Of a stretch of 64,000 bases of DNA, positions 36,741 to 64,000 are shown piece after piece (the stretch's first letter is position 1; every line of letters starts with the position of its first letter). Source of the stretch: Armatimonadota bacterium (lineage in GTDB: Bacteria; Armatimonadota; HRBIN16); assembly GCA_026003195.1 (NCBI GenBank), contig BPGU01000005.1, positions 129,851 to 193,850 of the forward strand, written 5' to 3'. The position numbers and the translations under genes were made by a program. Under the pieces are notes generated by a model. The model was not told where the DNA came from. It searched no databases and worked only from the letters and a program-made list of their open reading frames with translations.

Positions 36741-36936
36741 CCCCGCTATCTCTGAATACCAGTGTCCCAATCCAAATTGTAAGCAAGGTAAGGATAGAAA
36801 CAGGTACTTATACATGCCCAATTTGCCGTTTGAGAGGATAGAATATGTACAGATTGACCAGTTTGGCAATGAGATAAGCTCCCGTGTGGTATATCGATGC
36901 AGATACTGTGGGACGGAGTTCACGGTGCAGAGGTAG
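36733..36936 (+). CDS. zinc-ribbon protein (67 aa)
   Basis: CPNPNC...CRYC four-Cys arrangement. Confidence 0.45.
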   Translation: MNSPAISEYQCPNPNCKQGKDRNRYLYMPNLPFERIEYVQIDQFGNEISSRVVYRCRYCGTEFTVQR

Positions 36937-36940
36937 TGGT

Positions 36941-37462
36941 ATGTCCAGAAACAGTGGTCTTGCCTTTGAACGTGAGTTGCTGGCGTCTGCATCCTCCTGC
37001 GAGCACCTCGTGCTTGTGAAGATCCCTGTCGGATACTCTCCACTCAAACGCTTCGCCGGTGGTGGTTATGCGGATATGGTAGGCAATCTACACGGCATCG
37101 CCATCGCCATCGAAGCCAAGAGCTGTCGAGGCGGGCGCTTCAGCCTTGGCAGGATCACTGACAAACAGTTAGACTTCCTTCTCAAATGGCAGCAGGCTGG
37201 CGGATACGCCTTCGTGCTGCTGCGCTATGGATATCGTAACGTGCGCCTTGTTGTGATCGATGTGCGGCAGCTGCTGGCGTGGAAGGCTAAAGGCAAGAAG
37301 GGCATATCTGAGCGCGATATCCAGTATCTTCCATGCATCCCTCGGCGTGGTGCAAGGTGGTGCATGGAGGCTCTATATTCTATCATTCAGGAGGATGTAG
37401 ATGGCCATAAGCGATTTGAACGGCAAGATTCACAGGCTGGTGTTACCGGCGAAGCAAGGTGA
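36941..37462 (+). CDS. Holliday junction resolvase, archaeal Hjc / PD-(D/E)xK type
   Basis: GLAFERELL...GG..ADMVG......AIAIEAKS follows the Hjc motif order (E-R-x-L ... D ... E-x-K). Confidence 0.6.
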   Translation: MSRNSGLAFERELLASASSCEHLVLVKIPVGYSPLKRFAGGGYADMVGNLHGIAIAIEAKSCRGGRFSLGRITDKQLDFLLKWQQAGGYAFVLLRYGYRNVRLVVIDVRQLLAWKAKGKKGISERDIQYLPCIPRRGARWCMEALYSIIQEDVDGHKRFERQDSQAGVTGEAR

Positions 37463-41285: not shown

Positions 41286-44087
41286 CTATTTGACCGGACA
41301 GGCGCCGGTAGAACAGTCCTCCTCATACGATGCGTTCTGTACACGAGTGGCGCTTAGCTCATACTGCTCTCTGCTGATGCGCTCCAGCGGCGACTGCGGA
41401 CGACTGGACTCGGGGAACATGGTCACTCCCTTCAATCTTGGCAAATAGAGCAACAGTAACTCGCGGATCCGGTCTGCACGCTGCTCCTCTGCACTGATGT
41501 TGATGGTGATGCTCACTGCGTTGTCCGCATACTCGCGCTGCACCAGCTCCTGCACGCGCAGGAAGTCCGATACGTCCAGATCAAACTGGCTCTCCAGCAA
41601 CGAGAGCACCTGCTCGTAATCGCCCAGATGACTCACCAGCCTGTCCACAGTGATATCCCGACACACATACGATACTACCGTCGTGTTGGGCTCGTTGATG
41701 GCAGACTCCACATGGTGGTAATCGCCACGCTCCAGCACGCGCTGTAGCTCCGTGTCGGAGTTGCTATACCGTACACGACGGATGTAGAACGGGGAATAGA
41801 GGGGCTGGATGCCCGATGTCACACCGGGGATGTTGTTGATGGTGCCGGTAGGAGCTACCGTGGTGCACTTGATAGGCTCCGCAATCCGCATCTGCCTGGC
41901 ATAACGACGCGCCTCCTCGCGCACCACCTCCCGGAACTTCCTGAGCTGACGCGCTACCCACGGTGAGGAACTGGCTTCTGAATACCGGATACCGTGCTTG
42001 ACCAGCCACTCGTGGAAGCCCAGGAAACCGACACCTATTCTCCTGTTCCGCTGCACGTTCTGCCTGGTCAACTCGTCCGAGAGCTCCGCAAAGGTAGCTC
42101 TCAACAGGAACCGGGACATCAACCGGAAGCATTCTACAGGGTCCTCCGCAAACGCCAGGTTCACATGACCGAGACAACATACGTCAAAACTGCGCATGTC
42201 AGGATAGCGCATCATCGCGATCTCGCCGCAGTTGTGACTGACAAAGCCGTTGGAGACGTAGCAGTGTGCACCTTCTACCGTGCAATCGTATACCTCCATC
42301 TCGCCCAGCGGACTCACCTGTTGCACCTGCTCCAGCCATTCGCCACGATGCTTCTTGCTCGTACGATTCAACCGGCGCAGACGCATCGCCTGACGAGCCT
42401 GCCGCATATACTGCTTGTCTATCCTCAAAGACCACGTGTCCAGCGACGGTCGGTATACCAGCACAGACTTGATGCCCAGCATGTTCAGATGCGCTTTCCA
42501 CCTGTACGGGTCCACTTTGTCCGGTAACCAGATGAACTCCGTGCCATCACTGGATTCCGAACCGAGTAGACTCAACATGTCCTGCAAGCTGTCGAACTCG
42601 TCGTCCGCGACGATCGCGCCCTGTATGACCACGCTGTCGCCAGGCTTCAAATCGGATATGGGAACCCATTGCTTTGTGCCGTCACGCTCCACCAGTAACC
42701 GATGGTCAGCAGTGGCTTCCAGACGCGAACCCTGCACGGTCAGTACCTCATACACGGGCTTCTTGCCGGTGCTGAAGAACCCGGAACTGTGGAAGAACTC
42801 ACCGTTATATACCGCCGTGAACTCGTCCCTCAGCTCCTTCACCGGCACCATGCCACGATCGGTCAAGACGAGCGTGTTCTCCGTCACGCACGGATTGGTG
42901 GAATAGAAGGTGGCGCCCGGCGCCTCGTCCACCTCGCACTGCGAGGCGTTGATGAATCCGGGCTCGCCGTTGGTCAACATGCCTTCTATCACCTCGTCCA
43001 GCACACGGTTCGCCCAGCCGTGTAGCGGATGCTTCCTGTTGCGTACCGCACGGAAGAACTCGTCGTCCACCACAACGGAGATGTTCGTCGTCCAGTGTAA
43101 CCGGAAGTCGCGCTTGCAGTGGATGAACTCAAAGATATCCTTGTCCGTCCACCACTTCATGGACATCCTGGCGGAACGCCTGGTGCCTCCGGCTATAACC
43201 GCCTGCGCGATGTAGTGGTCTATCTCCATATAGTCCAGACTGCTTAGCGGCGTGCCTGTGCGACTGTTCAACAGTCTGTTGATGCGATACAGCATCACCA
43301 TGAGCGCACCAGGTCCGGACGCCTTGCCCCCGAACCCCTTCAACTCCGCACCGTAAGGGCGAACGTTGCCTACATCTACCACAAAGTCCACCTCTCCACG
43401 ACCGGACAGGTGTAACTGCAACAGCTTCTCCAGTGCCTCAGCCCAGCCTTCACGACTGTCGTCCACGCGCAGGTAGTTGCCGTTCTCCGCACCGTCGTAA
43501 TCTACCGGATAGCGCGTGCTCAGCATGTCCCTCAAAGTGCGGAAAGGCTCGTCCGACTCCGCACCTACAGGTCGGTCTATGTCCTGATGGTTCGGGGAAC
43601 ACAGGAAATGAAGGTTCACAACGGTGTCCGGAACCCAGTAACCGTTCACCTGGTTCGGATTGGAATGGATGAACCGGTCGGAATAGTTTGCACCTACTCC
43701 ACCACCTTCCATCAACCGCAGGAAGGTGTAGGTGAAGTGTTTGTGGAACTCGTCGGTGAAATCCGCTACGAAGCAGTTGTTCACGAACTGCCGATACTTG
43801 TGGATGCCGGTAGCCCAGAGATGCCGACCGGCAGGGATGATCTGCATCGTCACCATCAGATGGAACAGCTTCTGGGGCTCCTCCGGCTCTATGAACCTGG
43901 AATCCACCAGACTGCAGTTGCCGTTGACTACTCTGGCACAGATGTCGTACCAGTCCTCTATACCGCCGTCTTGCTTGGCACGTGCATAGGTGCGACGGAT
44001 GACCGTCTCACCAAGGGGACCGAGATTCAATGGGATGCTCTGACGAGCCTGCTGAACCATCTCTGCAGTGATGTACTTCAACGCCAT
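41286..44087 (-). CDS. nrdJ: ribonucleotide reductase catalytic subunit (probably class II, NrdJ-like) containing an intein
   Basis: RNR core motifs reconstituted across the intein (STNPC|GEIAMMRY). C-terminal Cys pair. No NrdB-like gene nearby, which is the only basis for the class II guess. Confidence 0.85.
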   Translation of the reverse strand: MALKYITAEMVQQARQSIPLNLGPLGETVIRRTYARAKQDGGIEDWYDICARVVNGNCSLVDSRFIEPEEPQKLFHLMVTMQIIPAGRHLWATGIHKYRQFVNNCFVADFTDEFHKHFTYTFLRLMEGGGVGANYSDRFIHSNPNQVNGYWVPDTVVNLHFLCSPNHQDIDRPVGAESDEPFRTLRDMLSTRYPVDYDGAENGNYLRVDDSREGWAEALEKLLQLHLSGRGEVDFVVDVGNVRPYGAELKGFGGKASGPGALMVMLYRINRLLNSRTGTPLSSLDYMEIDHYIAQAVIAGGTRRSARMSMKWWTDKDIFEFIHCKRDFRLHWTTNISVVVDDEFFRAVRNRKHPLHGWANRVLDEVIEGMLTNGEPGFINASQCEVDEAPGATFYSTNPCVTENTLVLTDRGMVPVKELRDEFTAVYNGEFFHSSGFFSTGKKPVYEVLTVQGSRLEATADHRLLVERDGTKQWVPISDLKPGDSVVIQGAIVADDEFDSLQDMLSLLGSESSDGTEFIWLPDKVDPYRWKAHLNMLGIKSVLVYRPSLDTWSLRIDKQYMRQARQAMRLRRLNRTSKKHRGEWLEQVQQVSPLGEMEVYDCTVEGAHCYVSNGFVSHNCGEIAMMRYPDMRSFDVCCLGHVNLAFAEDPVECFRLMSRFLLRATFAELSDELTRQNVQRNRRIGVGFLGFHEWLVKHGIRYSEASSSPWVARQLRKFREVVREEARRYARQMRIAEPIKCTTVAPTGTINNIPGVTSGIQPLYSPFYIRRVRYSNSDTELQRVLERGDYHHVESAINEPNTTVVSYVCRDITVDRLVSHLGDYEQVLSLLESQFDLDVSDFLRVQELVQREYADNAVSITINISAEEQRADRIRELLLLYLPRLKGVTMFPESSRPQSPLERISREQYELSATRVQNASYEEDCSTGACPVK
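42231..42890 (-). other. intein (220 aa) inserted at the RNR active-site NPC|GEI motif
   Basis: Begins CVTENTLVLTDRGMVPV and ends HCYVSNGFVSHN followed by +1 Cys. Coordinates derived from codon positions. Confidence 0.85.
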
Positions 44088-44796
44088 ACCTCCGTTCCAT
44101 CATGGATGTAATGTAGTCTGTCAGATTGTCCAGATAGGGGATAAGATCAACGGGGCAGGAATCTCTGAGTCGTCTCAACGATACGAAGGTGTGCTCCAGA
44201 CAGCTGCTGCTCTCGCAATCGTCCATGACAGATAACAACTGCTGCCATAGCGATTTGCCCAGCAAGTCCATGATGTCCAGAACCGTCTCATCGTACTCGT
44301 TATCATTGTAGCCAAACGCGCTTTCCATGATGCTGGAATCCAGAAGCACCGGACTCCTCAACATGTAAGCGTTGTGCAGATGCTCCGGCAGATCTTCCAC
44401 GTCGTACCCGTTGCGCTGATACGCGCGGATGCGCTTGCTGATGTCGCGTGGAACAGGCAACTCATCCAGTACCTTGTTATACACGTAGCGCTTGACGTAG
44501 GAGACAAGATAGACGGCAAAGTCGGAGCCCCTGGTGCAATCGTACCGGTCTAGCGCTTCCAGCGCCGCCAGCCTCGCCCACTGCATCATGTCCTCACGAG
44601 GCACGCCCAGCGAATGGAGCGCCCTGTGCTGCCAGATGACCAGATAGTTCAGCAACTCCTCAACATTGCTCACATAACTCTCTAATAACCGAACCCGATG
44701 GAGCTCGTCATAACACCTGTGGTAACGCTCCGCCAGATCCTGCAAACATGGAGATATCCTGGTACGGAGGGTCTTGAATGCACTGCTCATTCCCAC
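44008..44796 (-). CDS. sigma-70 region-2-like protein (262 aa), possible third phage sigma factor
   Basis: WARLAALEALDRYDCTRGSDFAVYLVSYVKRYVYNKV resembles sigma region 2.1-2.4. Confidence 0.45.
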   Translation of the reverse strand: MGMSSAFKTLRTRISPCLQDLAERYHRCYDELHRVRLLESYVSNVEELLNYLVIWQHRALHSLGVPREDMMQWARLAALEALDRYDCTRGSDFAVYLVSYVKRYVYNKVLDELPVPRDISKRIRAYQRNGYDVEDLPEHLHNAYMLRSPVLLDSSIMESAFGYNDNEYDETVLDIMDLLGKSLWQQLLSVMDDCESSSCLEHTFVSLRRLRDSCPVDLIPYLDNLTDYITSMMERRYGVEVHHCRDGSAGSSEHPIESRSPW

Positions 44797-46399: not shown

Positions 46400-48022
46400 A
46401 TGGCTTACATTTACACGGAATCGGATTATCCTCCGCTATATCAATCCATGCGCAGACTGGTGGAGTCGGATGTCAGGCTCAGCGCATGGAACTACCTGTT
46501 CCCGGCATCTCAGGCTGATGTGCTGGCGCATGCCCGTACCAGTCCGCAGATGGTGACGGCTCTTGCCTATGCGCCCAGTCATCCCAATATCCTGAACCAT
46601 CCGTTAACTTATACCACCGTCGTGGAGCGTGGTAGACGCAGGAACGCCTCGTCTCAGACCGCCCGGCTGTTCTCCGATATACTGGACACCCTGTACAGAG
46701 AGATGGGCGAGCGTCCCATATACAGTCTGTACGCCAGCCCCACCATCCCGTCACCGGCGTTTGCGCATCAGGACGACCCTGCGTTCCGACCGGGATTGAG
46801 ACCAGGCTCTGTAGAGAGCATCATCCGGCAGATGACGCCTGGGCATGTGTTCCTTGCCAGAGTGCCGTCTGACGAGTTGACGAATCCTGCACCGGCTGAA
46901 TCTGCAGAGGACCTGTCCAGAGTGCTCGGGGAATACGACGCACGTGAAGGCTTCCGGCGACTGGCGCTCCTGTATGAACGGTCGCCCGGTAAGAGCTCGC
47001 TGCTGTCCACTCTCTCCAGACAAACCGGCGCCGATGCTGATCAGATCGCCAGAGCGCTGGAGGCGAGCTCTGCTATCGGCACTGCACGCGATGCCAGGTC
47101 CATGATCCGCACGGTCGCCCATGAGTTCGCACATGCCAACATCCAGCCGGTGCCGCCCATTGCCACCTCGGCGCTGTTCAGGATGTTACGGGGCAAGACC
47201 AGTCCGACAGATGTTGCGGTTGCGGAGCTGATGCAGTCCCAGTATCTGGACGAAGCGCTATCTGATACATTCGCCGCAGCGGTCTCACTGGATCCTGAAG
47301 GCATCGCTCATTCCCGGTACGCGTTCGCCGCCGCATCACAGATATATGCAGCGGCACGCAGGAACAGGCAGGAGCTGAAGGGCTGGAAGTATGGAGACCC
47401 GTTCAAGCTGGTGGTCATGGATCCCAAACTGGTGGAGGATGTGGATTCCCCGCTTGGTAGACTGCTGAGGGACGAGTTGCGCAGGTATCCGCTGGACAAA
47501 ATCGCGGATGTGGACCAGATAGAGGACGAGAAGGGCGAGTTGAACATCGAGGCGTTGACCGGCGTTATCTCCCGAATCAGCGGTATCAACAGCACCGTCG
47601 CGCAGGAACTGTATCGCAAGCTGAGCGGGGGCACGCTGGACCTCAGTCGCTACGGTGGCGACGAGCGCCAGCTACGTCAGGTGATAGAGACCTGGGGCAG
47701 CAGACTCTGGAGCACCGCCTACATGATAGGCAAAGCCTCGCCGGAGCTGATAGGCAAGGAGATAGAGGTCACTCCGGAAGGCGTGTTCATGGACGGTGAG
47801 AAGCTGGACCTCGCTAAGACAGGTATCCCCGACCTGGACTATCTGTCCTTGACCGGCAGGGGCGAGATGCATCCGGAACAGCTGGAACGCGCCCATAACG
47901 CGCTGGAGATGTATCGTCGTGCCAAACGGGCGCTCCTGAGAGGCAAACGACTCGTTCTGCAGGCTGGTATGGCAGCCACCGAGATCGTGCAGTCGTGGAG
48001 GCGCGAGTTCGGCGCCATCTGA
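46400..48022 (+). CDS. HExxH zinc-metallopeptidase-like protein, tandem paralogue 1 (540 aa)
   Basis: HEFAH + downstream Glu. Shares GWKYGDP, IGKxxPELIGKEIxVTPEG and HPEQLER blocks with the next two genes. Confidence 0.65.
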   Translation: MAYIYTESDYPPLYQSMRRLVESDVRLSAWNYLFPASQADVLAHARTSPQMVTALAYAPSHPNILNHPLTYTTVVERGRRRNASSQTARLFSDILDTLYREMGERPIYSLYASPTIPSPAFAHQDDPAFRPGLRPGSVESIIRQMTPGHVFLARVPSDELTNPAPAESAEDLSRVLGEYDAREGFRRLALLYERSPGKSSLLSTLSRQTGADADQIARALEASSAIGTARDARSMIRTVAHEFAHANIQPVPPIATSALFRMLRGKTSPTDVAVAELMQSQYLDEALSDTFAAAVSLDPEGIAHSRYAFAAASQIYAAARRNRQELKGWKYGDPFKLVVMDPKLVEDVDSPLGRLLRDELRRYPLDKIADVDQIEDEKGELNIEALTGVISRISGINSTVAQELYRKLSGGTLDLSRYGGDERQLRQVIETWGSRLWSTAYMIGKASPELIGKEIEVTPEGVFMDGEKLDLAKTGIPDLDYLSLTGRGEMHPEQLERAHNALEMYRRAKRALLRGKRLVLQAGMAATEIVQSWRREFGAI

Positions 48023-48064
48023 TTGTTGCGCCATCTGATTGTTGCGCCATCTGATTGTCCACCG
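48020..48064 (+). repeat. 16-bp direct repeat x ~2.7 (cgccatctgattgttg) overlapping the stop of paralogue 1
   Basis: Read directly from the sequence. Confidence 0.7.
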
Positions 48065-48253
48065 TGTGTACTGGTAAGCACGGTGGATACGGATGTACAT
48101 ATTCTCCGAACAGGACCTCAACCGATCCTGGCAGGCGTTTAACGAGCTCTTCCAGCAAGACGTTGTACCCCGCATCAAGGCGAGCATCATGGGGCACTAC
48201 ATGCAGCATAAGACGCCCTATGATGCGTTCCGATACTCGCCCGCCGTCTGGTA

Positions 48254-49777
48254 GTGTCTGCCCAGTCCGCCGAGGAGCTCCGCTCCGGCATGCTCATGGG
48301 CGTAGAACGCGCCGTCATGGAAGCGGTAGGGCCTGATAACAAGCGCAGGAACCTCGCCGTATACCTGCGCGGTCAACCTGTCACCGGTCAGGCACAGGAT
48401 ATCGCCAGAGTCGGAGGCGGCGAACTCTACCATTCCATCTACAGCGAGCTTGCCAGAGCCGTAGGTGGCGCACAGTTCAACCTGTATGCCAGCAAGGAAG
48501 GACACTCTGCATGGGGACAGGAAGCCATCACGGACTATCCGGATATCAACCTGTCCGCAAGGATGCTCGCAGGTGACCGCACCGAGCTGATGCGCGAGGT
48601 AGCACGTCAGACCGCGCCGGTATATCAGATAGCGTACAAATACAACGCCCCCAACGGTGGGGATCCCGCTTCCGTACCGAGCAACCTCGTGGCTCCCATA
48701 CATGCCGGAATGGATCCAGATGAAGCCAAACGGTTGGTAAGGGAATCTTACAGATACGCTACCGGTCAGGAAGATGATCTTCCCATCTCGCTGGCAGCCC
48801 ACGAGTTCGCACACACCACGCTTCAGCCCAGCAGGATGGTTCCGCACAGCGTGGTTCAGGAATACGTGCAGGGCAAGAGATCTCTGGCGGATATCCTCAC
48901 ACGCGGCGTGCTGGAATCGCAGTTCCTCAACGAGGCTCGCGCGGACATGTTCTCCATGGCGATCAGTCTCAACCCGCAGGCGATGGTGCGCGGGCGCTAC
49001 GCGATGGGCGCATACGGTAAAGCGCTGTCCAGTCGCAGCGGCGAGATGCAGGGCTGGAAGTTCGGTGACCCCCTCAACGTGCGCGTGATTGATCCCCAGA
49101 TGATTGAATCGGAGACGTCACCGCTGGCGCAACTGGTCAACCGATACGCCACAGCGGTCTCCGAACGGATACTCCACAATACCGCCAGAACGGGTGACCT
49201 GATGGCGGATGCCGCCGCTTCTGCAATGGACCAGCAAACGGTTGAGAAGCTAAGAGCGACAATGGACCCGTTAAACATGGTGAGGAATGCGAAGCTGGAC
49301 ATCTATGCCTCCGCATACTTCTCCAGAACGATAAAGAGACTCAGCAGTGATATCATGCGCCCCATCATTGAGGACTACCGTTCCGGAATGCTCGGTAACC
49401 TGCACCCGGATGTGGAGGAGCTGATCAAGTATCAGGGCACGAGACTTTGGGCTCTCGGATACATGGTGGGCAAGAGCAGACCGGACCTGATCGGCGAGCA
49501 GTTGAGCGTAACCCCAGACTCTGTTCGTGTCGCATCCACAGGCGAGGAGTTGAACATCGCCGAGCTTTTACCTTCACTCAACATCTCATCCATGTACGGT
49601 CCGCAGGTGATGCATCCCGTGCAGATGGAGCGGGGCTTCAAGGCGCTGGAGATATACGACAGGGCGAGAGAGGCTATCAGGCAAGGTGTTCGGTTGAACC
49701 TGTCGCCCGGCACACCAGCCGCCGATGTCGTGTCCGCATGGCGCGACCGGTTCTGGAAGGTGATGAACGATGTCTAA
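48254..49777 (+). CDS. HExxH zinc-metallopeptidase-like protein, tandem paralogue 2 (507 aa)
   Basis: HEFAH. GWKFGDP. VGKSRPDLIGEQLSVTPDS. Confidence 0.65.
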   Translation: MSAQSAEELRSGMLMGVERAVMEAVGPDNKRRNLAVYLRGQPVTGQAQDIARVGGGELYHSIYSELARAVGGAQFNLYASKEGHSAWGQEAITDYPDINLSARMLAGDRTELMREVARQTAPVYQIAYKYNAPNGGDPASVPSNLVAPIHAGMDPDEAKRLVRESYRYATGQEDDLPISLAAHEFAHTTLQPSRMVPHSVVQEYVQGKRSLADILTRGVLESQFLNEARADMFSMAISLNPQAMVRGRYAMGAYGKALSSRSGEMQGWKFGDPLNVRVIDPQMIESETSPLAQLVNRYATAVSERILHNTARTGDLMADAAASAMDQQTVEKLRATMDPLNMVRNAKLDIYASAYFSRTIKRLSSDIMRPIIEDYRSGMLGNLHPDVEELIKYQGTRLWALGYMVGKSRPDLIGEQLSVTPDSVRVASTGEELNIAELLPSLNISSMYGPQVMHPVQMERGFKALEIYDRAREAIRQGVRLNLSPGTPAADVVSAWRDRFWKVMNDV

Positions 49778-51425
49778 GTTCATCCAGAACCTGCTCAAAC
49801 GCGCCGACCGGTTCCAGAGCCCTGCACAGGAGGTAATAGCCGACAGTCCCGCTCAGGAGATTCTTGAGCAGGATGTTCTTGCTACTGAGCAGGAGGTTCT
49901 TGCCGATAGCCCGGCACAGCAGGCGCTGGGCACGAGCTATGTACGGAGCTTACTGGCCGGTAACGCATTCCCCATCTACACGCAGGAGCATCTCAGGGAC
50001 TTTGAACAGCGATTCCTGTCCGCATGGAGCGATATCCAGAGCCCGGTGCGCATTCAGGAAGCGCTGGACAGGCTTCCGATGGAGTTGCTGGCTGCCACCA
50101 ACACCATCTGGGAGCCGGACGCATCCATGAGCACCGCCTATCGGGAAGGCGAGTGGAAGGTGAAGCGACCGCCCATAGGATTAAGATTGTATCAGGAAGC
50201 TTCAACCGAAGTGGACCGGATACTGGGCTATGAGAATAAGGTCAATCTGTACAGCTCGTTCCTGTCCGGTCCCTCTATGCGCGGACTGGACCCGCTTCAA
50301 CCGGACAGGACGGTTGAACCGTCAGGGCTGTTGAAGGAGACGATGCCCGCTACCAGACTGGTGTATCTGGATATGATGAACTCACCGTTTATAAGGGAGT
50401 ATATGGATGAGTACGAACGGGTCAGTCCGGAGCTCAAGCGGGTGATACAGGGCGTGCAGGACGTGGAGGTGGTGAACCGGGTGACGCCGTTCACATACCT
50501 GCACGAGTACACGCACGGCGTGATGTTCCCGCTATCCACGATAACCTACAGCAACCTGCAACGCCACCTGAGCGGCGAGTTAGGGATGACGGATATCGTC
50601 ACCAGATCGTATATGAACTACGCCATGATTCAGGAGGCGGTCGCCGATGCCATCGGAGCCGCACTGTCCGGCGACCTGGAAGGCGCATTGACCATGCGAT
50701 ATAGCGCCGAGATGGCAGTGCACGCCGGTGACGATGTGAAGCCCAGATACGGCGACCCTATCCGTCTGGAGGTAATAGACCCGGCACTGATAGAGGATAC
50801 CGAGAACAGTCCGCTCTGGCAGATGGTAAGGCAAGCCGCAAGCGATATCGAGCAGAGACGACCGAACAAGTTTATCGATGAACCGAACGTCATGAGGTAT
50901 TCCCTGGAACGCCGAGACCTGAGGGCTTTCACAACCGCCATGCAGAGTCTGGAACATATCACCAGCATGGTATACGATAAACTGATAAGCGCCGCGGAAT
51001 CCGGTAGTCTGGATAGACAACTCCGTGAGACCATCATGGGACAGGCTTCCAGAATCTGGATCTATCCCTACTTCATCGGTAAAGCCAGACCGGACCTCAT
51101 CGGTAAGGAGATAAACATCCTGCCCGAATCGATTGAGGTGGCAGAGACCGGTGAGAAGCTGAACCTTGCGGAGATACTGCCGGATATCGCACCGTTAGGA
51201 TTAATAGACGAATCCGTTGTGCATCCGGAACACCTGCGTCGTTCCTTCAAGCTGATCGAGTTATACGACCGTGCCAGGGAAAGACTGAGGGCGGAACACG
51301 CCATGCAGCAGGCTTCGGAAGCGGAGGTAGTGCACCACAGGAACTACGAGACCGCACCGCCTCCGGATACAGGAGAAGCGGTGATAGAGCGCTGGCGGGA
51401 ATGGATCAGGAGCATAGCACCTTGA
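49770..51425 (+). CDS. HExxH zinc-metallopeptidase-like protein, tandem paralogue 3 (551 aa)
   Basis: HEYTH. PRYGDP. IGKARPDLIGKEINILPES. Confidence 0.65.
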   Translation: MSKFIQNLLKRADRFQSPAQEVIADSPAQEILEQDVLATEQEVLADSPAQQALGTSYVRSLLAGNAFPIYTQEHLRDFEQRFLSAWSDIQSPVRIQEALDRLPMELLAATNTIWEPDASMSTAYREGEWKVKRPPIGLRLYQEASTEVDRILGYENKVNLYSSFLSGPSMRGLDPLQPDRTVEPSGLLKETMPATRLVYLDMMNSPFIREYMDEYERVSPELKRVIQGVQDVEVVNRVTPFTYLHEYTHGVMFPLSTITYSNLQRHLSGELGMTDIVTRSYMNYAMIQEAVADAIGAALSGDLEGALTMRYSAEMAVHAGDDVKPRYGDPIRLEVIDPALIEDTENSPLWQMVRQAASDIEQRRPNKFIDEPNVMRYSLERRDLRAFTTAMQSLEHITSMVYDKLISAAESGSLDRQLRETIMGQASRIWIYPYFIGKARPDLIGKEINILPESIEVAETGEKLNLAEILPDIAPLGLIDESVVHPEHLRRSFKLIELYDRARERLRAEHAMQQASEAEVVHHRNYETAPPPDTGEAVIERWREWIRSIAP

Positions 51426-51741
51426 TAAGGTCTACACGTTCGGAATAGTCCTCCGGATCCGTCTGTCGGTACAACTTCATCAGCTTCTCCGCCAGCTCCG
51501 GTAACCTGCCGATACTGGGCATCAATGGATGCTTCAATCCTTCGGCGATCTCGCCACCGGCAAGCCGCCAGGCGAGTATCTCCTCAGGTGTGCCTTCCAC
51601 AAGCACCAGATGCGGCATGGCGCCCACATCCAGCACGAAGTTGCCCATGTCCATGTTGCCAATTTGTAAATGCAGGGCGATCGCCTTCTCCGCCAACTGC
51701 GCCGTGGCGTAACTGCCGTCCTTCTTGTCCAGAAGCTTCAT
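51406..51741 (-). CDS. hypothetical protein (111 aa), downstream of the mini-array
   Basis: ATG at 51741. The longer ORF-track form would run into the CRISPR repeats. Confidence 0.4.
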   Translation of the reverse strand: MKLLDKKDGSYATAQLAEKAIALHLQIGNMDMGNFVLDVGAMPHLVLVEGTPEEILAWRLAGGEIAEGLKHPLMPSIGRLPELAEKLMKLYRQTDPEDYSERVDLIKVLCS

Positions 51742-51778
51742 GATATGTCCCTCCGTTGCGCCAGTTTCTATCCTGCTC

Positions 51779-52020
51779 ATTTCTATCCTACTCAGGTATG
51801 TACCGAACTCAGCACGATGCCAGAGTGTATGCATACGGTATCATCAGTTTCTATCCTACTCAGGTATGTACCGAACAGCCTATGGAGGCTGCACAGCTCG
51901 CCAGACAGTTCGCATACAGATCGTTTGCGAACCGTGCGCTCTGCGCCGTGTTGATCGCTATCGCCATATACAATATCACTCCAGTGCACAGTTTCTATCC
52001 CACTTAGGTATGTGCCCAAC
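51779..52020 (-). CRISPR. mini-array: 3 variant repeats (51779-51808, 51847-51876, 51991-52020) with a 38-nt and a 114-nt spacer
   Basis: Repeats atttctatcctactcaggtatgtaccgaac, gtttctatcctactcaggtatgtaccgaac and gtttctatcccacttaggtatgtgcccaac. The last one overlaps the final 5 codons of the RNA ligase gene. Confidence 0.6.
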
Positions 52021-53080
52021 CTGAGTTCTCCATCTCACGTACCACGATCTTCCTTATGGACCGGTTGAACTTATCGCCGGTATAGGAGACCGTCCAGCGC
52101 CATGGCGGTGGGATGTCCAGCACACGGGCTCTGCCCAGCCCGGCATAACGCTGAGCCTGTTCCGTTACCTGCCGTTCCAGACTCTCTATCCGTGCAATCA
52201 GCTCTTGCACATGAGGCAGATACACCAGGAACTCCTCCACCTCGGCGACGGTCGCCCTTAACGCTTCCAGTCCGCCCTCCAGATACGTCCTCAGCATCCG
52301 GTTCGTGGTCATACCACGAACGCTTGCCAGTCGCTTCAGATACTCCGGCGACTTCAACTTGACGAGCAGGTTACCGTAACCGTGAGTATACTGCACCACA
52401 ACGCCTTCCCAGTCCGCATGTTCCGCCATCTCCACGAGCTGCACAGCCTCGTCAATGCTATACACGGGATACTGCTGTGGTAGTCTGAGTGGAGGCTCTA
52501 AGTGACTGTAGAACTCTACCGCCGGTATCAACTCCAGCGTGCTGAGGTCTCTGAGATAGAGTATTACCAGCGCAGGCTGCGCCGGTGGAGTGCACATGCC
52601 GGGTTGCCACACCTCGTTGTGTAACAACTCGGCAACCATCGTGTAGCCTTCAGGAAGCTGTATGCATCCACCGGCGAGCTGGCTGGCGATGACGGCAGCT
52701 CTTGTCCAGATGCCGTGTCGTGAAGCGAACACGAGTTCACCTTCATGATGGAATACCTGTATCATCACACCGTCCGCCTTCTCACAGACGCAACGCACGG
52801 TCTTGTCCGCAAGATGAGCCGGCGACGTCTCATCATGCTCGTTCAAGTTGAAGAACTTGACAAGCGGTAGCGACACCAGATTGTTCTCCGAATCGATGAC
52901 CAGCCCACGACAGACTCTGAGCCATGGCGTCCACATACCACGATAGCTGGCTTTATCGGTATAGTTCAGCAAGGTGAGGTTGCCATGTGTACGCACATTC
53001 AGTATCGTGGGATCATAATCGCCAGACCGGACGATGTGGATGGCCTCATCTATCGCCCTGCGGATCTCCCGTACGGTCAT
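52004..53080 (-). CDS. RNA ligase, T4 Rnl1 family
   Basis: VCRGLVID...LVKFFNLNEHDE... mirrors T4 Rnl1 ECRGIMFE...MEKFFNLNENP. Motif I KADG with no Arg at +5. EGVVVQ (motif IV) and LVKLK (motif V). ATG 53080 with AGGAGG upstream. Confidence 0.7.
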   Translation of the reverse strand: MTVREIRRAIDEAIHIVRSGDYDPTILNVRTHGNLTLLNYTDKASYRGMWTPWLRVCRGLVIDSENNLVSLPLVKFFNLNEHDETSPAHLADKTVRCVCEKADGVMIQVFHHEGELVFASRHGIWTRAAVIASQLAGGCIQLPEGYTMVAELLHNEVWQPGMCTPPAQPALVILYLRDLSTLELIPAVEFYSHLEPPLRLPQQYPVYSIDEAVQLVEMAEHADWEGVVVQYTHGYGNLLVKLKSPEYLKRLASVRGMTTNRMLRTYLEGGLEALRATVAEVEEFLVYLPHVQELIARIESLERQVTEQAQRYAGLGRARVLDIPPPWRWTVSYTGDKFNRSIRKIVVREMENSGWAHT

Positions 53081-53091
53081 GAACGTGCCTC

Positions 53092-53544
53092 CTAACCGTT
53101 TGGTGGGGCTCTGTGCTCGTTCAACCAGATGCATGCTCTGGTTACACCATCGCCGAACAGATCTTCAGAGTAGATAACCTTATCGGAGTGATACCATAGC
53201 CACGGATGGTACAGGTTCTGGTATCCTGTCACCAGCACGGTGGTCTTGCCCCACAGGCGGGCATAGAGCAACTCCATGCTGGTGCCGATACTTGCCCGTG
53301 CCATGATGGCGATGATGGCATCCGACTGTTTGAGAAGGCTGAGGTCCGACTGCACCAGCTGCTTGCAGGCTTCCCTGAAGTTCATCTGTTCGAGCAGTCT
53401 TGGCCAGATCTCCGGGTTCATGAAGTCCATCGGCGAGATGGGTTCCAGCCCATGAGACCGAACAAGCTCCGCTACCTGCTTGAACATCTGCTGGGGATCA
53501 TAGTCTCTGTGGTTGGAGATGGGCATTCCGATATAGACACGCAT
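53092..53544 (-). CDS. nucleoside 2-deoxyribosyltransferase-like protein
   Basis: MRVYIGMPI N-terminus and SIGTSMELLYARLWGKTTVLV resemble the NDT/DNPH1 family (catalytic Glu in the G-T-S-x-E-L context). Confidence 0.5.
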   Translation of the reverse strand: MRVYIGMPISNHRDYDPQQMFKQVAELVRSHGLEPISPMDFMNPEIWPRLLEQMNFREACKQLVQSDLSLLKQSDAIIAIMARASIGTSMELLYARLWGKTTVLVTGYQNLYHPWLWYHSDKVIYSEDLFGDGVTRACIWLNEHRAPPNG

Positions 53545-54108
53545 TCAGGCCACCTCCGGATTCAGCTCGCCGTGTATGAGGTTCTTGAACCACTCATCGT
53601 CGATCTTGTGGAGATGCCTGCTGTTGTCTTTGAGAAACGCCCAGGCGCCTCCTTCGCGGAATACGTAGAGCTCATACCCGCCGACAGGTATCTTGAAGAA
53701 GTAGTCTACGCTCCTGTCCAGCGTGTTGGGGACCAGCTCGTATTCCAGACTCTCCAGAACCTGGATGATTCGTTGCAGTTGCTGTTCCGTAATGGTGAGC
53801 GTGCCGTATCGGTATATACGCCCGGAGATTTGCCGGATGATATCCTGCACGGCATCGATGGGAACAGAATACCATTTCCCACGATAGCAGAAGGAGTAGC
53901 GTTCTACTGCGACGACAGAGACCTCCTTATCCTTGATGATTTGCAGATATTTGCACCAGTCCAGTTCCTCCACCGTCTGCTCGATCTGGTAGTCTCTGAC
54001 GACGAGACCGCCGACTGTTTCCTTGTCCAACATGAACAGATCGTGTTTGTCCAGTAGTAGAGTCACAGTATCGCTGTCGGATTGGCACCGTATGGCGTAG
54101 AACTTCAT
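53545..54108 (-). CDS. hypothetical protein (187 aa)
   Basis: ORF with AGGAG SD. Confidence 0.55.
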   Translation of the reverse strand: MKFYAIRCQSDSDTVTLLLDKHDLFMLDKETVGGLVVRDYQIEQTVEELDWCKYLQIIKDKEVSVVAVERYSFCYRGKWYSVPIDAVQDIIRQISGRIYRYGTLTITEQQLQRIIQVLESLEYELVPNTLDRSVDYFFKIPVGGYELYVFREGGAWAFLKDNSRHLHKIDDEWFKNLIHGELNPEVA

Positions 54109-54149: not shown

Positions 54150-54179
54150 GTTTCTATCCTACTAAGGTATGTACCTAAC
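54150..54179 (-). CRISPR. solitary CRISPR repeat unit (gtttctatcctactaaggtatgtacctaac)
   Basis: 28/30 identity to the array repeat. Sits in a 90-nt intergenic space. Confidence 0.75.
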
Positions 54180-54198: not shown

Positions 54199-55251
54199 TT
54201 ATATGGGGCAATTGTTGAGGTCTATATCGTATTCCAGCAGCATCACCTTATCGCCCATCATCAGGGACACCTGTGGCGTCAATCTGGGCAGCTGGTTCAT
54301 GAGAGAGGCGATATGCATGAGGTTACCACGTGCCAGCGGTCGCACGAAGCAGCTGTTCTTTATGGGATGCGGGAACAGCTCGCTGACGGCGCTTCTCATT
54401 GTCATGCCGGGCTCCACAATGATGTATCGCTGGTAGACACTAATCACGTCATGGGTTTGTACCAGCACGTTGTTGATACGTACCAGGACGACGTTGAAGC
54501 GGATATCGTATCCAGATTTCAGGGCGAACCGAAGGGCGGCGAGCCGCACCATGTAATGAAGGAGATCTCTGGCAAGATGCTCTATACTCCTGTAACCGTA
54601 TGTGTCGTTGATCTCGCTTCTGCAGTTCAGGAGTTGCTCCTGTCTCACGAGCATGATGCGGTAGTGTCCTGCCGCTTCAGACTGCACATAGTTCGTGGAT
54701 AACAGATTGGCAAGAACCAATACGTCCTGGAACAGCTTATCCAGCGGTAAAGACTGCACAAAGTCCAGGAACGAAGCGGTGTACCGGATATGCTGTTCGG
54801 AAGCCTGTTCGCATGCCCTTATCCACTCCTGCCGTAGATAGTCAAAGAATGCGGATGATTCGTTGCACATCTGGCTTATCATCCTGCCCTGTCGTTCCTG
54901 GAGGGAATCATCGTTCTCAAGATGCTTCATCATCTGCATCAGCCAGTTGCGGGACGCTATTCTGGCACCGGGCAGGTTGTGACTGTGTTCGTTGATAGTT
55001 AGTTCCACGTCTCCTATGCGTAGCAGGATGGTGCCTGGAGTATCACTGTCTGCTGGCTGATAACGTAGAGACACACCATGGGGCAGCGTCCATCCGTAGG
55101 ACTCTGCAGGATAGACTATCCGCACGGGCCAGACGTCGGGGGGTCGAATGAACGGCTCCATGAAGAGCTCTCTGGTCTTGTTACGAACGAAGCTGATGAA
55201 CTTGAGTGGGGTGTTGACCATGCCCGGTTCTCCTCCATACACTAAGATCAT
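54199..55251 (-). CDS. unknown protein (350 aa), paralogue of the ORF at 63036..>64000
   Basis: Shared block FFDYLRQEWIRACEQASEQHIRYTASFLDFVQSL vs FFRRFRREWKDACEQALWEDATRYTAPFIKFISSL. Confidence 0.6.
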   Translation of the reverse strand: MILVYGGEPGMVNTPLKFISFVRNKTRELFMEPFIRPPDVWPVRIVYPAESYGWTLPHGVSLRYQPADSDTPGTILLRIGDVELTINEHSHNLPGARIASRNWLMQMMKHLENDDSLQERQGRMISQMCNESSAFFDYLRQEWIRACEQASEQHIRYTASFLDFVQSLPLDKLFQDVLVLANLLSTNYVQSEAAGHYRIMLVRQEQLLNCRSEINDTYGYRSIEHLARDLLHYMVRLAALRFALKSGYDIRFNVVLVRINNVLVQTHDVISVYQRYIIVEPGMTMRSAVSELFPHPIKNSCFVRPLARGNLMHIASLMNQLPRLTPQVSLMMGDKVMLLEYDIDLNNCPI

Positions 55252-55265
55252 AGTCTGTTCTGTAA

Positions 55266-55295
55266 GTTTCTATCCTACTTAGGTATGTATCTAAC
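55266..55295 (-). CRISPR. solitary CRISPR repeat unit (gtttctatcctacttaggtatgtatctaac) between cas3 and the 350-aa gene
   Basis: Lies 4 nt after the cas3 stop and 14 nt before the next start codon. Confidence 0.75.
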
Positions 55296-57969: not shown

Positions 57970-59416
57970 CGTTTCTATCGTTTCTATTCTAGCTTCCATC
58001 CTACTCACTTCTATCCTACTAAGGTATGTACCCAACTGGCTTAGGTATGTACCGAACTCAGCTCGTAGTCCTGAACCTCAAAGGTCACACCTTGAGTTTC
58101 TATCCTACTTATTTCTATCCTACTTAGGTATGTACCTGACCATTGCTGTATCTGGCGATGGCTGTCGGGGACTGGATTCGTTTCTATCCTACTTAGGTAT
58201 GTACCTGACTGATCAATCTGTAGACAACAGTGACTTCAACTTCACTGGTTTCTATCCTACTTAGGTATGTACCTGACGTGAGCACTCATGCCTGTTTCTA
58301 CCTTAACCTGGAGCTGTTTCTATCCTACTTAGGTATGTAACTGACTTGAAATCGCAATGTCACGATGATAACGATGCCTCCAGGTTTCTATCCTACTTAG
58401 GTATGTACCTGACCGCATTGGGCTGGTTAAGAACAGTAGCACGTTCTCCGTTTCTATCCTACTTAGGTATGTACCTGACTACCCGAACGTGCCTGCATGG
58501 TTGAGAGTGCCAGCGTTTCTATCCTACTTAGGTATGTACCTGACTGGCAAGGGTGCTGTTCGTTGGTGCTTCCCCCAACGACGTTTCTATCCTACTTAGG
58601 TATGTACCTGACACGATGAAGTAGACTTCGTCCCCTGCCCGCTCTGCAAGTTTCTATCCTACTTAGGTATGTACCTGACAACATCAGCGTGCGCCCAGTG
58701 CGCCGCGAGTTCGTGCGTTTCTATCCTACTTAGGTATGTACCTGACCCTTCATGATGACAAACAACTAACGAAACCAAAAGGGTTTCTATCCTACTTAGG
58801 TATGTACCTGACCGCGCCGGAAGAAGAGACGATAGTGTTTCGTGATGCAGTTTCTATCCTACTTAGGTATGTACCTGACACCTCCGAAGCCAGACTACTT
58901 CCGTGAGGTATCGGCGTTTCTATCCTACTTAGGTATGTACCTGACTGGCACGACGCTGACCAGGGTGAAGGGACAGTCGTTCGTTTCTATCCTACTTAGG
59001 TATGTACCTGACCTTTGCTTCACCCGTTAGTACGTCAACAATCCTGTACCGCGTTTCTATCCTACTTAGGTATGTACCTGACATAGCACGCGTCCTCAAG
59101 ACCACACCGGAATGGCTCGCGTTTCTATCCTACTTAGGTATGTACCTGACGAGTGTTTACGCTTCCTGTATGACCGCTTCCCGAATGGTTTCTATCCTAC
59201 TTAGGTATGTACCTGACCCGTACGGGAAAGAATACATACCTCTCTACGAAGATTGTTTCTATCCTACTTAGGTATGTACCTGACTGGTGTTCTCTGCCGA
59301 ACGCGCCATGATATAGCCGTGTTTCTATCCTACTTAGGTATGTACCTGACCACTCCTTTGTCAGACTTCACGTTTTCCGCGAATAGGTTTCTATCCTACT
59401 TAGGTATGTACCTGAC
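57970..59416 (-). CRISPR. CRISPR array: 20 full 30-nt repeats (58110-59416) plus a degenerate trailer (57970-58109), 19 spacers of 35-40 nt
   Basis: Consensus on plus strand GTTTCTATCCTACTTAGGTATGTACCTGAC. Transcribed sense GTCAGGTACATACCTAAGTAGGATAGAAAC (AUAGAAAC 5' tag). Degenerate repeats lie at the cas5-proximal (trailer) end. Confidence 0.9.
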
Positions 59417-59610: not shown

Positions 59611-59640
59611 ATTTCTATCCTACTTAGGTATGTACCAAAC
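59611..59640 (-). CRISPR. solitary repeat unit (atttctatcctacttaggtatgtaccaaac) between the cas7 stop and the leader
   Basis: Lies 14 nt after the cas7 stop. Confidence 0.7.
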
Positions 59641-62490: not shown

Positions 62491-62688
62491 CTACACCTGG
62501 CTCACGCAGTAATCCTCCTCTATATCATCTGCCATCTCAGCGGTAACGTTGGTCAGCTCCCAGCGGGTACCGCACCGTGGGCACTCGCCGTCGTAGGTGT
62601 TCTGATACTGACCACCTACCAGCTCCAGCTGAACCTGAGAACCGCAGGGGCAGGTAATGATGATGTACTGGGGATTGGTGTTGTACAT
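62491..62688 (-). CDS. zinc-ribbon protein (65 aa)
   Basis: CPCGS...CPRCG. AAGGAG SD. Confidence 0.5.
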   Translation of the reverse strand: MYNTNPQYIIITCPCGSQVQLELVGGQYQNTYDGECPRCGTRWELTNVTAEMADDIEEDYCVSQV

Positions 62689-62705: not shown

Positions 62706-62767
62706 TTGTTCCCATCCTGCTTGTTCCCATCCTGCTTGTTTCTATCCTGCTCTGGTATGTTGCTAAC
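62706..62767 (-). CRISPR. degenerate solitary repeat (62738-62767, gtttctatcctgctctggtatgttgctaac) embedded in a 15-bp x3 tandem repeat (cttgttcccatcctg)
   Basis: Read directly. The conserved GTTTCTATCC end is retained. Confidence 0.5.
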
Positions 62768-62996
62768 GTGTGTTCTCGTCAATGTTAGCTTCCTGCCTCT
62801 GGATGGTCTCCCTGACACGCTCCCACGCTTCGTCCAGCTCGTCTCTGGTTAACTGCAGTCGCCACTGCTCCATATCGATAAGGTGCTGGTAAGCGAACAG
62901 GAGCATGTCCTCCAGATCCAGGGATTGCTCTTGCTGTTTCATGAACAGCACATCCTGTAACATGAACTCAACTGCTTCCTGTACCCGTTCGTCCAT
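62763..62996 (-). CDS. hypothetical acidic protein (77 aa)
   Basis: GGAGG SD 7 nt upstream. Confidence 0.5.
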   Translation of the reverse strand: MDERVQEAVEFMLQDVLFMKQQEQSLDLEDMLLFAYQHLIDMEQWRLQLTRDELDEAWERVRETIQRQEANIDENTR

Positions 62997-63035: not shown

Positions 63036-64000
63036 CTAACATGATAGCACTTCCAAGAGTGCCTCAACACCTTTGTCACCACGTACGCTATACTCCAGCA
63101 CAAGCGCTTGCATGTCCTGACCGGTCTCCACCTTCTGCCAGGTAACCTCATGCACAATGGGCTGGGTGTTCAGTATGCGGTCTATTAATGTAGCCAGATA
63201 GGGCAGACTGCCCTTGCAAAGCCTCTCCAGAGCGTCGTCCAATCTGAAGGTTCTAATAAGCCTGCGTGCTTCCGCTTCCAGATTGGCATCTGGAGCCAGA
63301 ACCCTGTACGAGCTTGCAGAGACGTCGTAATATGCATGGATCAGTAAGTTGTCTATGATGACCAGATTCCTGGCGTCCTTCAGATCCATGCCTCTGCGTA
63401 GATACTGCTCCATGGATGCAAGCGATATCAGATCTGCAGCCAAACGACGACCATACAGGAGCAGATCGTCGTACCTATCGTATAGCGTATTCCTGAACTC
63501 ACTTTTGGCTATCCGGGATTGATAGTCCAGCGCATCTCTCAGAGTCTCGATAACGTGTCTGGAGTAATATGTATCCCTCATGCCGTACATGAGCTCTGCC
63601 CTTACTACAGCGTTGGTGAACCGATCCTTGATAGACAGGGAGCTGATGAACTTGATGAAAGGAGCCGTGTATCTCGTAGCGTCCTCCCAAAGAGCCTGTT
63701 CACAGGCATCTTTCCATTCCCGACGGAACCGCCTGAAGAACGTGCAGGCATCCCTGTGAGCCCGTTCCACTTCGTTACCGTACAGGTAGTGGTACATTCG
63801 AGAGCCGTCCGGGTTACTCAGAATGGACTCCCTGAGCATCCCTTCTCCTGCGCGGATGAAGGAATCGCTGAAGGCTGCCCCATCATCGTATTCAGATACA
63901 GCAACTTCCATATCGCCTGCGCGTACAACAAACGTACCCTGCTCATCGATATGCCTGCCCGGTTTGTACAGGAGAGTGGTGCCAGGAGTGAGTTCTACCT
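63036..64000 (-). CDS. unknown protein, paralogue of 54199..55251; 5'-truncated, the ORF stays open to the window end
   Basis: The frame is open upstream of Met63911 through position 64000. Shared EW(K/I)(D/R)ACEQA...RYTA.F..F..SL block with the 350-aa protein. Confidence 0.55.
   Translation of the reverse strand, partial: VELTPGTTLLYKPGRHIDEQGTFVVRAGDMEVAVSEYDDGAAFSDSFIRAGEGMLRESILSNPDGSRMYHYLYGNEVERAHRDACTFFRRFRREWKDACEQALWEDATRYTAPFIKFISSLSIKDRFTNAVVRAELMYGMRDTYYSRHVIETLRDALDYQSRIAKSEFRNTLYDRYDDLLLYGRRLAADLISLASMEQYLRRGMDLKDARNLVIIDNLLIHAYYDVSASSYRVLAPDANLEAEARRLIRTFRLDDALERLCKGSLPYLATLIDRILNTQPIVHEVTWQKVETGQDMQALVLEYSVRGDKGVEALLEVLSC

Follow-up and report, generated by a model that had tools for sequence, protein, structure and literature searches.

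What does the gene for an RNA ligase do among the repeats of a CRISPR locus that is carried by a phage? The question is raised by a 64-kb stretch of DNA (the window) from a 202-kb contig that was binned into the Armatimonadota metagenome-assembled genome KatS3mg023. The source of the window is a large tailed phage that encodes a baseplate J protein, an amidase, giant structural open reading frames (ORFs), RecU, a sigma factor and a ribonucleotide reductase with an intein. Between 51.4 and 63.9 kb every gene lies on the minus strand, and this region holds a type I-B CRISPR-cas operon, solitary copies of its repeat and a unit of three genes that encode a protein of 187 amino acids (aa) termed u187, a nucleoside 2-deoxyribosyltransferase (NDT)-like protein and a ligase of the Rnl1 family. 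We suggest that this ligase unit is cargo in an array-proximal variable zone, that the zone is contested by the CRISPR systems of sibling phages and that the ligase is an RNA-sealing counter-defense gene; we hold the chances of this combined reading to be about even. The link between ligase and CRISPR that the data show, as read from spacer alignments, is that spacers are directed at the region of the ligase in siblings of the phage.

The ligase unit and its setting

The initial annotation had placed three ORFs inside a repeat-punctuated locus. All three are present on the minus strand, and the solitary repeats that flank them are real:

53545-54108, minus strand: u187, 187-aa protein, first gene of the u187-NDT-ligase unit
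53092-53544, minus strand: NDT/DNPH1-like protein, 150 aa (PF05014, phrog_355)
52004-53080, minus strand: Rnl1-family ATP-dependent RNA ligase, 358 aa (PF09511, phrog_562, motifs and fold match)
54150-54179, minus strand: solitary repeat with 2 mismatches, ending 41 nucleotides (nt) upstream of the u187 ATG
51991-52020, minus strand: solitary repeat with 4 mismatches, overlapping the ligase stop codon
51877-51990, minus strand: inter-repeat segment of 114 nt, a remnant (sense strand) of the 5′ part of a 131-aa gene found in the related locus L005
51779-51876, minus strand: mini-array in which one 38-nt spacer (51809-51846) is enclosed by two repeats (3 and 4 mismatches)
51764-51778, minus strand: 15-nt half-repeat after the mini-array

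The ligase ORF extends from 52004 to 53134, and its real start is the ATG at 53080, 7 nt upstream of which lies an AGGAGG Shine-Dalgarno sequence; this start is backed by the N-termini of homologues and by an identical deposited protein of 358 aa (KatS3mg023_3761; P0001). The protein matches PF09511 in Pfam with 48.3 bits (E = 1.5e-12; cut-off 28.3), phrog_562 in PHROGs at 2e-29 and, in a sequence search of PDB, T4 Rnl1 at 9e-7. Invariant in an alignment of 24 homologues are K75, F76, F77, N78 and E81 (KFFNxxE), K101, D103 and G104 (motif I), E225 and G226 (motif IV) and K241 and K243 (motif V). R58 is likewise invariant and, together with K75 and F77, aligns with R54, K75 and F77 of T4 Rnl1, which we take to be the Rnl1-specific N-terminal residues known from mutational studies. 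The initial annotation had called the ligase T4 Rnl1-like from its KFFNLNE and KADG blocks and had named an arginine of the DNA-ligase type in motif I as a feature that would refute its reading; motif I reads KADGVM, with no such arginine past the glycine, and EKADGVMIQ aligns to KEDGSLVS of T4.

An AlphaFold2 model of the ligase (predicted local distance difference test, pLDDT, 92) has a helical C-terminal part (residues 245-352). Its top Foldseek match is T4 Rnl1 (2c5u_A; E = 1.2e-14) with template modeling scores of 0.55/0.52 over the full length, moderate values that leave the detail of the C-domain match loose; 9do4, 5tt6 and then fungal Trl1 follow 2c5u, and Rnl3, Rnl5 and DNA ligases rank lower. 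The protein is about 25-28% identical to Rnl1 proteins of cultured phages and reaches 34.7 bits against NCBIfam TIGR02308, the T4 RnlA equivalog with a cut-off of 242.25, which makes it a distant member and not an equivalog. Together, the conserved motifs and the predicted structure argue for a catalytically intact RNA ligase with the T4 Rnl1/fungal Trl1 fold. The last five codons of its gene and the stop codon come from a CRISPR repeat copy, giving the C-terminus GWAHT. As the initial annotation had noted for Pnkp, no end-healing enzyme was found in the window by Pfam scans of most ORFs and tblastn with a phage polynucleotide kinase, a search that covered 64 kb of the 202-kb contig; moreover, the 47 loci of this ligase subfamily yielded neither a polynucleotide kinase nor a phosphatase of the Pnkp-like kind. 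RNA-end processing linked to the repeats, which had also been proposed, finds no support here, with no end-healing enzyme in either set.

The NDT-like protein matches PF05014 (34.3 bits, E = 2.9e-8; cut-off 28.8) and phrog_355. S85-I86-G87-T-S-M90-E91 and YHPWL are invariant across four NDT-like homologues, and SIGxxME aligns to CGTAFEL of NDT 6qai and SLGVGYEL of DNPH1. The glutamate of the SxGxxxE motif is presumably the catalytic nucleophile in NDT and Rcl, and this alignment indicates that the NDT-like protein keeps the candidate catalytic glutamate. In a search of solved structures the single sequence had no match, and the family profile weakly matched NDT 6qai and DNPH1/Rcl (E 0.009-0.04). 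The NDT-like call of the initial annotation is borne out by the Pfam match and by the aligned glutamate motif, and of the two profile searches that it had proposed, the one for the 150-aa protein gave a family and the one for the 187-aa protein gave none: u187 has no match in Pfam, PHROGs, NCBIfam or PADLOC, and nothing was found for it among phages by tblastn. HMMER recovered three real homologues of u187 among 1.8 billion representatives (two further matches were spurious repetitive proteins), and its AlphaFold2 model is poor (pLDDT 42.6).

The u187 stop codon directly abuts the NDT ATG, 11 nt separate the NDT stop codon from the ligase ATG, and the three genes lie on one strand, each with its own Shine-Dalgarno sequence. 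This arrangement identifies u187, NDT and ligase as one translationally coupled unit that is cargo inside the phage's type I-B CRISPR-cas operon, and the unit is probably co-transcribed with that repeat-punctuated operon, the other parts of which are:

62767-62738 (plus two half-repeats) and 62449-62420, minus strand: degenerate repeats that bracket a 65-aa zinc-ribbon ORF (62688-62491)
62404-60764, minus strand: cas8b
60767-59655, minus strand: cas7/Cst2
59611-59640, minus strand: solitary repeat with 3 mismatches, located past cas7 and ahead of the 194-nt leader
58111-59416, minus strand: CRISPR array in which 19 spacers of 35-40 nt separate 20 repeats (transcribed as GTCAGGTACATACCTAAGTAGGATAGAAAC)
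57971-58057, minus strand: degenerate repeats, together with half-repeats, that separate the array from cas5
57955-57329, minus strand: cas5b
57366-55300, minus strand: cas3
55266-55295, minus strand: solitary repeat with 2 mismatches, between cas3 and u350
54199-55221, minus strand: u350, 340-aa protein, paralogue of the 291-aa protein at 63036-63911
51406-51741, minus strand: u111, 111-aa ORF without assigned function, the next unit past the mini-array, with a homologue at the end of L005

Type I-B was called from Cas8b, Cas7/Cst2 (DevR), Cas5b and Cas3 together with an array of about 30-nt repeats, and the array lies in mid-operon, between cas7 and cas5. The window holds no Cas6, and a Cas6 hidden among the proteins of no known family was dropped as a candidate, as none of them matches Cas6 or a defense model. 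Cas1, Cas2 and Cas4 are likewise absent from the window; Cas6 and the adaptation genes could come from the host or from other parts of the contig.

The 11-nt 3′ part of the repeat occurs 32 times with at most one mismatch against 0.37 expected occurrences, and all but one chance match fall in 51.7-62.8 kb. About nine copies are solitary, all of them gene-oriented and placed 15-51 nt ahead of start codons or at stop codons; repeat copies head the 65-aa zinc-ribbon ORF, cas8 (the copy at 62449-62420 ends 15 nt ahead of its ATG), the array leader, cas5, u350, u187 and u111. Solitary copies start with 5′ GTT as opposed to GTC in array repeats, keep their 3′ 24 nt well and vary at positions 3-5, and three of them are followed by tandem half-repeats. 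More generally, tandem copies of the 3′ half, or handle, of the repeat come after the ends of arrays and after some of the solitary repeats and lead directly up to the next gene; the half-repeats of the window at 58096-58110, 51764-51778 and 62708-62737 read AAGTAGGATAGAAAC, GAGCAGGATAGAAAC and two times AAGCAGGATGGGAAC, respectively. The repeat is unstructured and holds a weak -10-like TAGGAT, by which a repeat-embedded promoter is neither backed nor ruled out, and terminator-like sites on the minus strand and promoter-like sites in the window do not exceed chance. The exact repeat was not found in 185,579 representative GTDB genomes, in IMG/VR or in JGI metagenomes.

Spacer targets in sibling phages

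The ligase subfamily comprises about 11-13 lineages. In one of these, here referred to as the sister lineage (14 contigs with ligases that are 65-100% identical to each other), a CRISPR array lies directly upstream of the ligase gene. This is a type I-C array whose repeat is 37 nt long and forms a hairpin; about 34 nt separate the end of the final repeat from the ligase ATG, and genes for Cas5d, Csd1 and Cas7, a second array and the gene for Cas3 are found downstream. Almost the full length of 17 of the 106 unique spacers matches sibling contigs outside arrays; ten of the 17 protospacers lie inside sibling ligase genes and the others in genes just upstream or downstream. A 5′ GTN protospacer-adjacent motif (PAM) is present at 15 of the 17, and the spacer-bearing contig's own copy has extra mismatches or an altered PAM, as in the case of spacer s94, which matches siblings at 37/37 positions with the PAM GTC and its own contig at 31/37 positions with ATC. 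Every spacer match on the 21-kb locus L001 falls within about 1.1 kb of the array. Between strains, DNA identity is 73-84% in the ligase region and 94-96% in the HAD and cas5d regions, and the breakpoints of strain-to-strain homology fall right after repeats or handles.

Solitary repeats or bare 3′ handles also lie just before the ribosome-binding sites of neighboring genes in the sister lineage, and one solitary repeat retains an 8-bp hairpin with a different stem sequence. The type I-C handle ATTGAAAC is present three times (L001 10017-10036), and the array leader is duplicated with 83% identity (L001 8895-9138 and 17061-17304) ahead of the second array, between cas7 and cas3. In both lineages, the arrays are located inside the cas operon on the coding strand. 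A HAD hydrolase gene comes after the ligase gene in the sister lineage; we considered its product as a Pnkp-like healing enzyme and dropped it, as it resembles generic small-molecule HAD hydrolases.

For the window lineage, the spacer match is to L005, in which the gene order is u350-like, 194 aa, u187, 380 aa, NDT, 131 aa and u111-like and in which the ligase and the repeats are absent. The window proteins are 62% (u187) and 86% (NDT) identical to those of L005, and the ligase gene and the repeats downstream of it take the place of the 131-aa gene. The mini-array spacer matches the antisense strand of this 131-aa gene at 28/38 positions (26/30 in the core), compared to at most 23 for the best of 2000 shuffles and at most 22 for the other 19 spacers; the match being imperfect, L005 itself is probably not the actual target. 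The 114-nt remnant aligns with the same gene at a local score of 31, which none of 500 shuffles reached (maximum 27). The mini-array spacer was also considered as a self-regulator of the CreA or crlRNA type, a candidate that was dropped, as no target was found in the window.

A co-binned 28-kb contig carries variants of the unit. Its ligase (P0002) is 100% identical to that of the window from residue ~73, in KFFNLNE, to the repeat-encoded C-terminus and divergent over the first ~70 residues, and its u187 (P0034) has a different C-terminus. By this pattern of identity, P0002 and P0034 are recombination mosaics, and in P0002 recombination looks to have had a recent breakpoint within KFFNLNE, a conserved block. 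Judged by locus-tag numbering, this variant has three genes, not one, between u187 and the ligase. Window spacers in six-frame translation had no match among all fetched proteins, the divergent N-terminus of P0002 included.

The relatives also separate backbone from cargo. On a contig of 'bacterium HR16' (L166 8917-11038) homologues of the 291-aa protein and of u350 are encoded side by side, and because the two genes are adjacent there we conclude that the whole cas module is an insertion between them. The GC content at third codon positions agrees with this, being 0.51-0.63 in the cas genes, 0.66-0.72 in ligase, NDT and u187 and 0.66-0.74 in backbone genes; the insertion contains neither Cas6 nor an adaptation module. 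NDT and ligase genes co-occur loosely in relatives, at distances of about 400 nt (L004), 3 kb (L034) and 7 kb (L001). In L004 (1912-11110), which is phage-like with a UvsX-like recombinase and a DnaB-like helicase, three ligase paralogues of this subfamily lie within 10 kb, with an NDT-like gene near the first whose product is 54% identical to the window protein. The initial annotation had taken unlinked genes in related phages as evidence against a cassette, and the genes are in part unlinked: L005 lacks the ligase, and L001, which has a ligase, lacks u187 and carries NDT at a distance of 7 kb. Gene order in these relatives indicates that the trio is not a conserved cassette and that the NDT-like gene and u187 belong to the conserved backbone of the phage group. 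Of the proposal of a cassette coupled to the CRISPR locus there remains that the unit is embedded in the operon and that ligase-array adjacency recurs with another subtype; conservation as a cassette does not hold.

Competing explanations

In the reading that we favor, the connection between the ligase unit and CRISPR would be positional and evolutionary, not enzymatic: (i) sibling arrays would target the array-proximal zone, (ii) recombination would reshuffle this zone, and (iii) repeat copies would mark the junctions. The ligase itself would, by analogy with other large phages, seal RNA, most likely tRNA, that is cut by host nucleases. Because no end-healing enzyme lies nearby, the healing partners may be encoded elsewhere in the 202-kb genome or, alternatively, the breaks may already be directly ligatable, with the 5′-phosphate and 3′-OH ends that metal-dependent nucleases leave. 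With their position on the transcribed strand shortly before start codons, the solitary repeats probably also act as cleavage or binding sites, and in that way a long transcript would be divided into CRISPR RNAs (crRNAs) and mRNAs.

Several observations weigh against this reading. Ligase-array adjacency is found in two of about 11 ligase lineages, and arrays near more distant Rnl1 genes in IMG/VR (L115, L142) turned out to be plain tandem repeats. The related loci were fetched via the ligase, which biases them toward protospacers in the ligase region. In the window lineage the mini-array spacer provides the sole match, which is imperfect (28/38) with a mismatched seed, and no target was found for the 19 spacers of the main array among GenBank phages and fetched proteins. 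Processing at the repeats stays conjectural, as the repeat is unstructured and neither Cas6 nor another repeat endonuclease can be seen, and tRNA as the most likely substrate of the ligase is proposed by analogy with other phages. Finally, the ligase-array adjacencies could instead reflect selection for co-expression.

The arrays may also act as homing or marker-exclusion elements whose spacers would preferentially cut those sibling alleles that lie beside the array, the ligase gene and its neighbors, with recombinational repair off the attacking genome copying the array, its flanking repeats and the linked ligase allele into the victim. The solitary repeats would then be footprints of exchange and the homology used for it, and might also be transcript cleavage sites, and the ligase would be a hitch-hiking, fast-diversifying marker of the drive. 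We regard this as rather improbable.

The ligase, perhaps with NDT and u187, may, in line with the initial annotation, be a counter-defense RNA-repair module that is wired into the CRISPR operon for co-expression, made from the array or cas transcript and freed by repeat cleavage, which would let the phage bring crRNAs and RNA repair into play at once. The short distances fit this idea, in that the sister ligase ATG follows the final array repeat by about 34 nt, leaving no space for a promoter, and the window unit starts 41 nt past a repeat on the strand of the cas genes; moreover, the adjacency arose with two CRISPR subtypes, I-B and I-C. Yet no array was found in the examined flanks of nine other ligase lineages, and L005 has u187 and NDT without ligase or repeats. 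The HAD hydrolase after the sister ligase could be counted in favor of the idea, as standalone HAD phosphatases go with RNA ligases in jumbo phages (PMC7824862), but this protein is like generic small-molecule HAD hydrolases and a kinase was found neither in the window nor in the 47 loci. As co-expression also leaves the spacers aimed at the ligase region unexplained, we consider it possible but unlikely.

A further possibility is that the solitary repeats are inert remains of array decay or recombination and that the ligase lies nearby by chance in an island of accessory genes. CRISPR-cas loci commonly hold standalone repeat units, which are often judged spurious (PMC10120712), some window copies are degenerate (6-9 mismatches) and some sister copies retain the 3′ handle only. 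All nine solitary copies of the window are, however, gene-oriented at the positions described above, they vary at positions 3-5 with the 3′ 24 nt well kept, and the sister repeat with its 8-bp hairpin has kept the structure with a different stem sequence. With the mini-array spacer match being significant and at an allelic position, inert scars are quite unlikely.

Alternatively, the solitary repeats and the mini-array may give rise to crRNA-like regulators of cas or cargo genes or to RNA anti-CRISPRs by which type I-B proteins of the host are titrated, the ligase being regulated cargo. Both classes of RNA are known (PMC10120712, PMC10651486), cas8 and cargo genes have repeats upstream, and in the absence of Cas6 from the window the phage may rely on a host whose own system has a compatible repeat. 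On the other side, neither the mini-array spacer nor the sequences after the repeats have a partial or convincing seed match to promoter regions in the window, the repeat was found in none of the three collections that were searched, and the phage has its own Cascade genes with the same repeat. We therefore regard such a role as very unlikely.

Rnl1 needs 5′-phosphate and 3′-OH ends, and repeat endonucleases leave 5′-OH and cyclic phosphate. That the ligase joins or circularizes Cas-cleaved RNAs, as the physical closeness of the repeats might suggest, or that it is mainly a tail-fiber attachment factor like T4 gp63, as the PHROG label 'RNA ligase and tail fiber protein attachment catalyst' might suggest, is highly improbable, given the mismatched end chemistry without a healing enzyme in the locus in the first case and a label inherited from T4, in which this role is a T4-specific moonlighting function, in the second.

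Neighboring genes and known systems

The genes around the unit add to the description of the locus. The 291-aa (63036-63911, minus strand) and 340-aa (54199-55221, minus strand) paralogues that flank the cas module are about 24-27% identical; their family has no PDB profile match and no family match, and the 291-aa protein has a PIN match below cut-off. Upstream of cas8 lie the 65-aa zinc-ribbon ORF (CPCG...CPRCG; 62491-62688, minus strand), preceded by a repeat and two half-repeats, and a 77-aa acidic ORF (62763-62996, minus strand) whose stop codon is inside a repeat copy. The CRISPR region is immediately preceded upstream by three paralogous ORFs in tandem (540, 507 and 551 aa; 46400-51425, plus strand) that match no Pfam or PHROG family; each has an HExxH motif (HEFAH, HEFAH and HEYTH, respectively) and all have a common GWK(Y/F)GDP block, and from these motifs they may be a zinc-metalloprotease-like paralogous array. 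Further genes near the CRISPR region are:

41286-44087, minus strand: B12-dependent ribonucleotide reductase with an intein
44008-44796, minus strand: phage sigma-70-like factor
35075-35509, plus strand: ferritin-like protein
36884-37462, plus strand: RecU-like resolvase

Four very large plus-strand ORFs of 2351, 1687, 1232 and 1334 aa (1269-8324, 14264-19327, 21450-25148 and 25129-29133, respectively) are presumably virion or tail proteins; among them, the 2351-aa ORF alone has a family match, to the endolysin-like phrog_20474. No tRNA genes and no Rfam families were found in the window, the locus and the array had no match among GenBank phages by blastn, and NDT-based searches for the locus in viral and genome collections returned nothing. 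Look-ups by exact protein, made with window proteins and with P0001, P0002 and P0039, likewise returned no record.

How does this locus compare with known systems? Its ligase resembles T4 Rnl1 (RnlA/gp63) and fungal Trl1 in fold, nucleotidyltransferase motifs and the N-terminal KFFNLNE element and, like many Rnl1 genes, is carried by a large phage. It differs from T4 Rnl1 in being only about 16-28% identical to characterized members and in being embedded between CRISPR repeats, and we found no report in the literature of an Rnl1 gene tied to phage arrays. Rnl1-type ligases of large phages are thought to seal RNA or tRNA breaks inflicted by the host (PMC7824862). In Streptomyces phage EGole the ligase gene lies among tRNA genes with a polynucleotide kinase gene 0.5 kb away, whereas the window ligase has neither nearby.

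Solitary CRISPR repeats in viral genomes can act as RNA anti-CRISPRs, or Racrs (Camara-Wilpert et al. 2023, PMC10651486). The window shares such repeats, but its phage encodes the cognate Cascade and Cas3, and no host system with this repeat was found. Standalone repeats, mini-arrays and cargo genes have been described in CRISPR-cas loci (Shmakov et al. 2023, PMC10120712), and the window is alike in its intergenic repeat-like sequences, including one upstream of cas8, its non-cas cargo and its character as a hotspot of gene shuffling. It differs in that no spacer-promoter complementarity was found, in its unusually many (about nine) solitary copies that head nearly every unit, and in that the locus is phage-borne, without Cas6 in the window and with an RNA ligase instead of a toxin-antitoxin as cargo.

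A further parallel concerns virus-borne mini-arrays, described for archaeal viruses, whose targets are regions near the array in sibling viruses, the carrier's own orthologous locus being mutated or deleted; the proximity of protospacers to viral arrays was noted and left unexplained (Medvedeva et al. 2019, PMC6858448). The window mini-array is likewise short and viral, with a spacer that matches a close relative and a target beside the array position, and the carrier locus is likewise reduced, here to the 114-nt remnant of the 131-aa gene; the sister lineage has the same pattern on a larger scale and with a PAM. The differences are that a bacterial phage is involved which itself encodes type I effectors and has an array of 19 spacers, that the arrays lie inside the cas operon, that the contested region holds an RNA ligase gene and that the match in the window is imperfect. 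Individually the components are ordinary, and the novelty lies in the architecture and in the spacer-target geometry. The setting is unusual, with a phage type I operon, an array in mid-operon, repeats at the head of nearly every unit and an RNA ligase as cargo; in a second lineage, with the other CRISPR subtype, an array abuts the same ligase family and PAM-supported spacers are aimed at sibling ligase alleles. If our reading is correct, CRISPR repeats would serve as junctions of cargo exchange and possibly as mRNA punctuation, the clustering of protospacers beside viral arrays (PMC6858448) would have an explanation, and CRISPR-based conflict between viruses, so far seen mainly in archaeal viruses with mini-arrays and without cas genes, would extend to phages with full effector modules.

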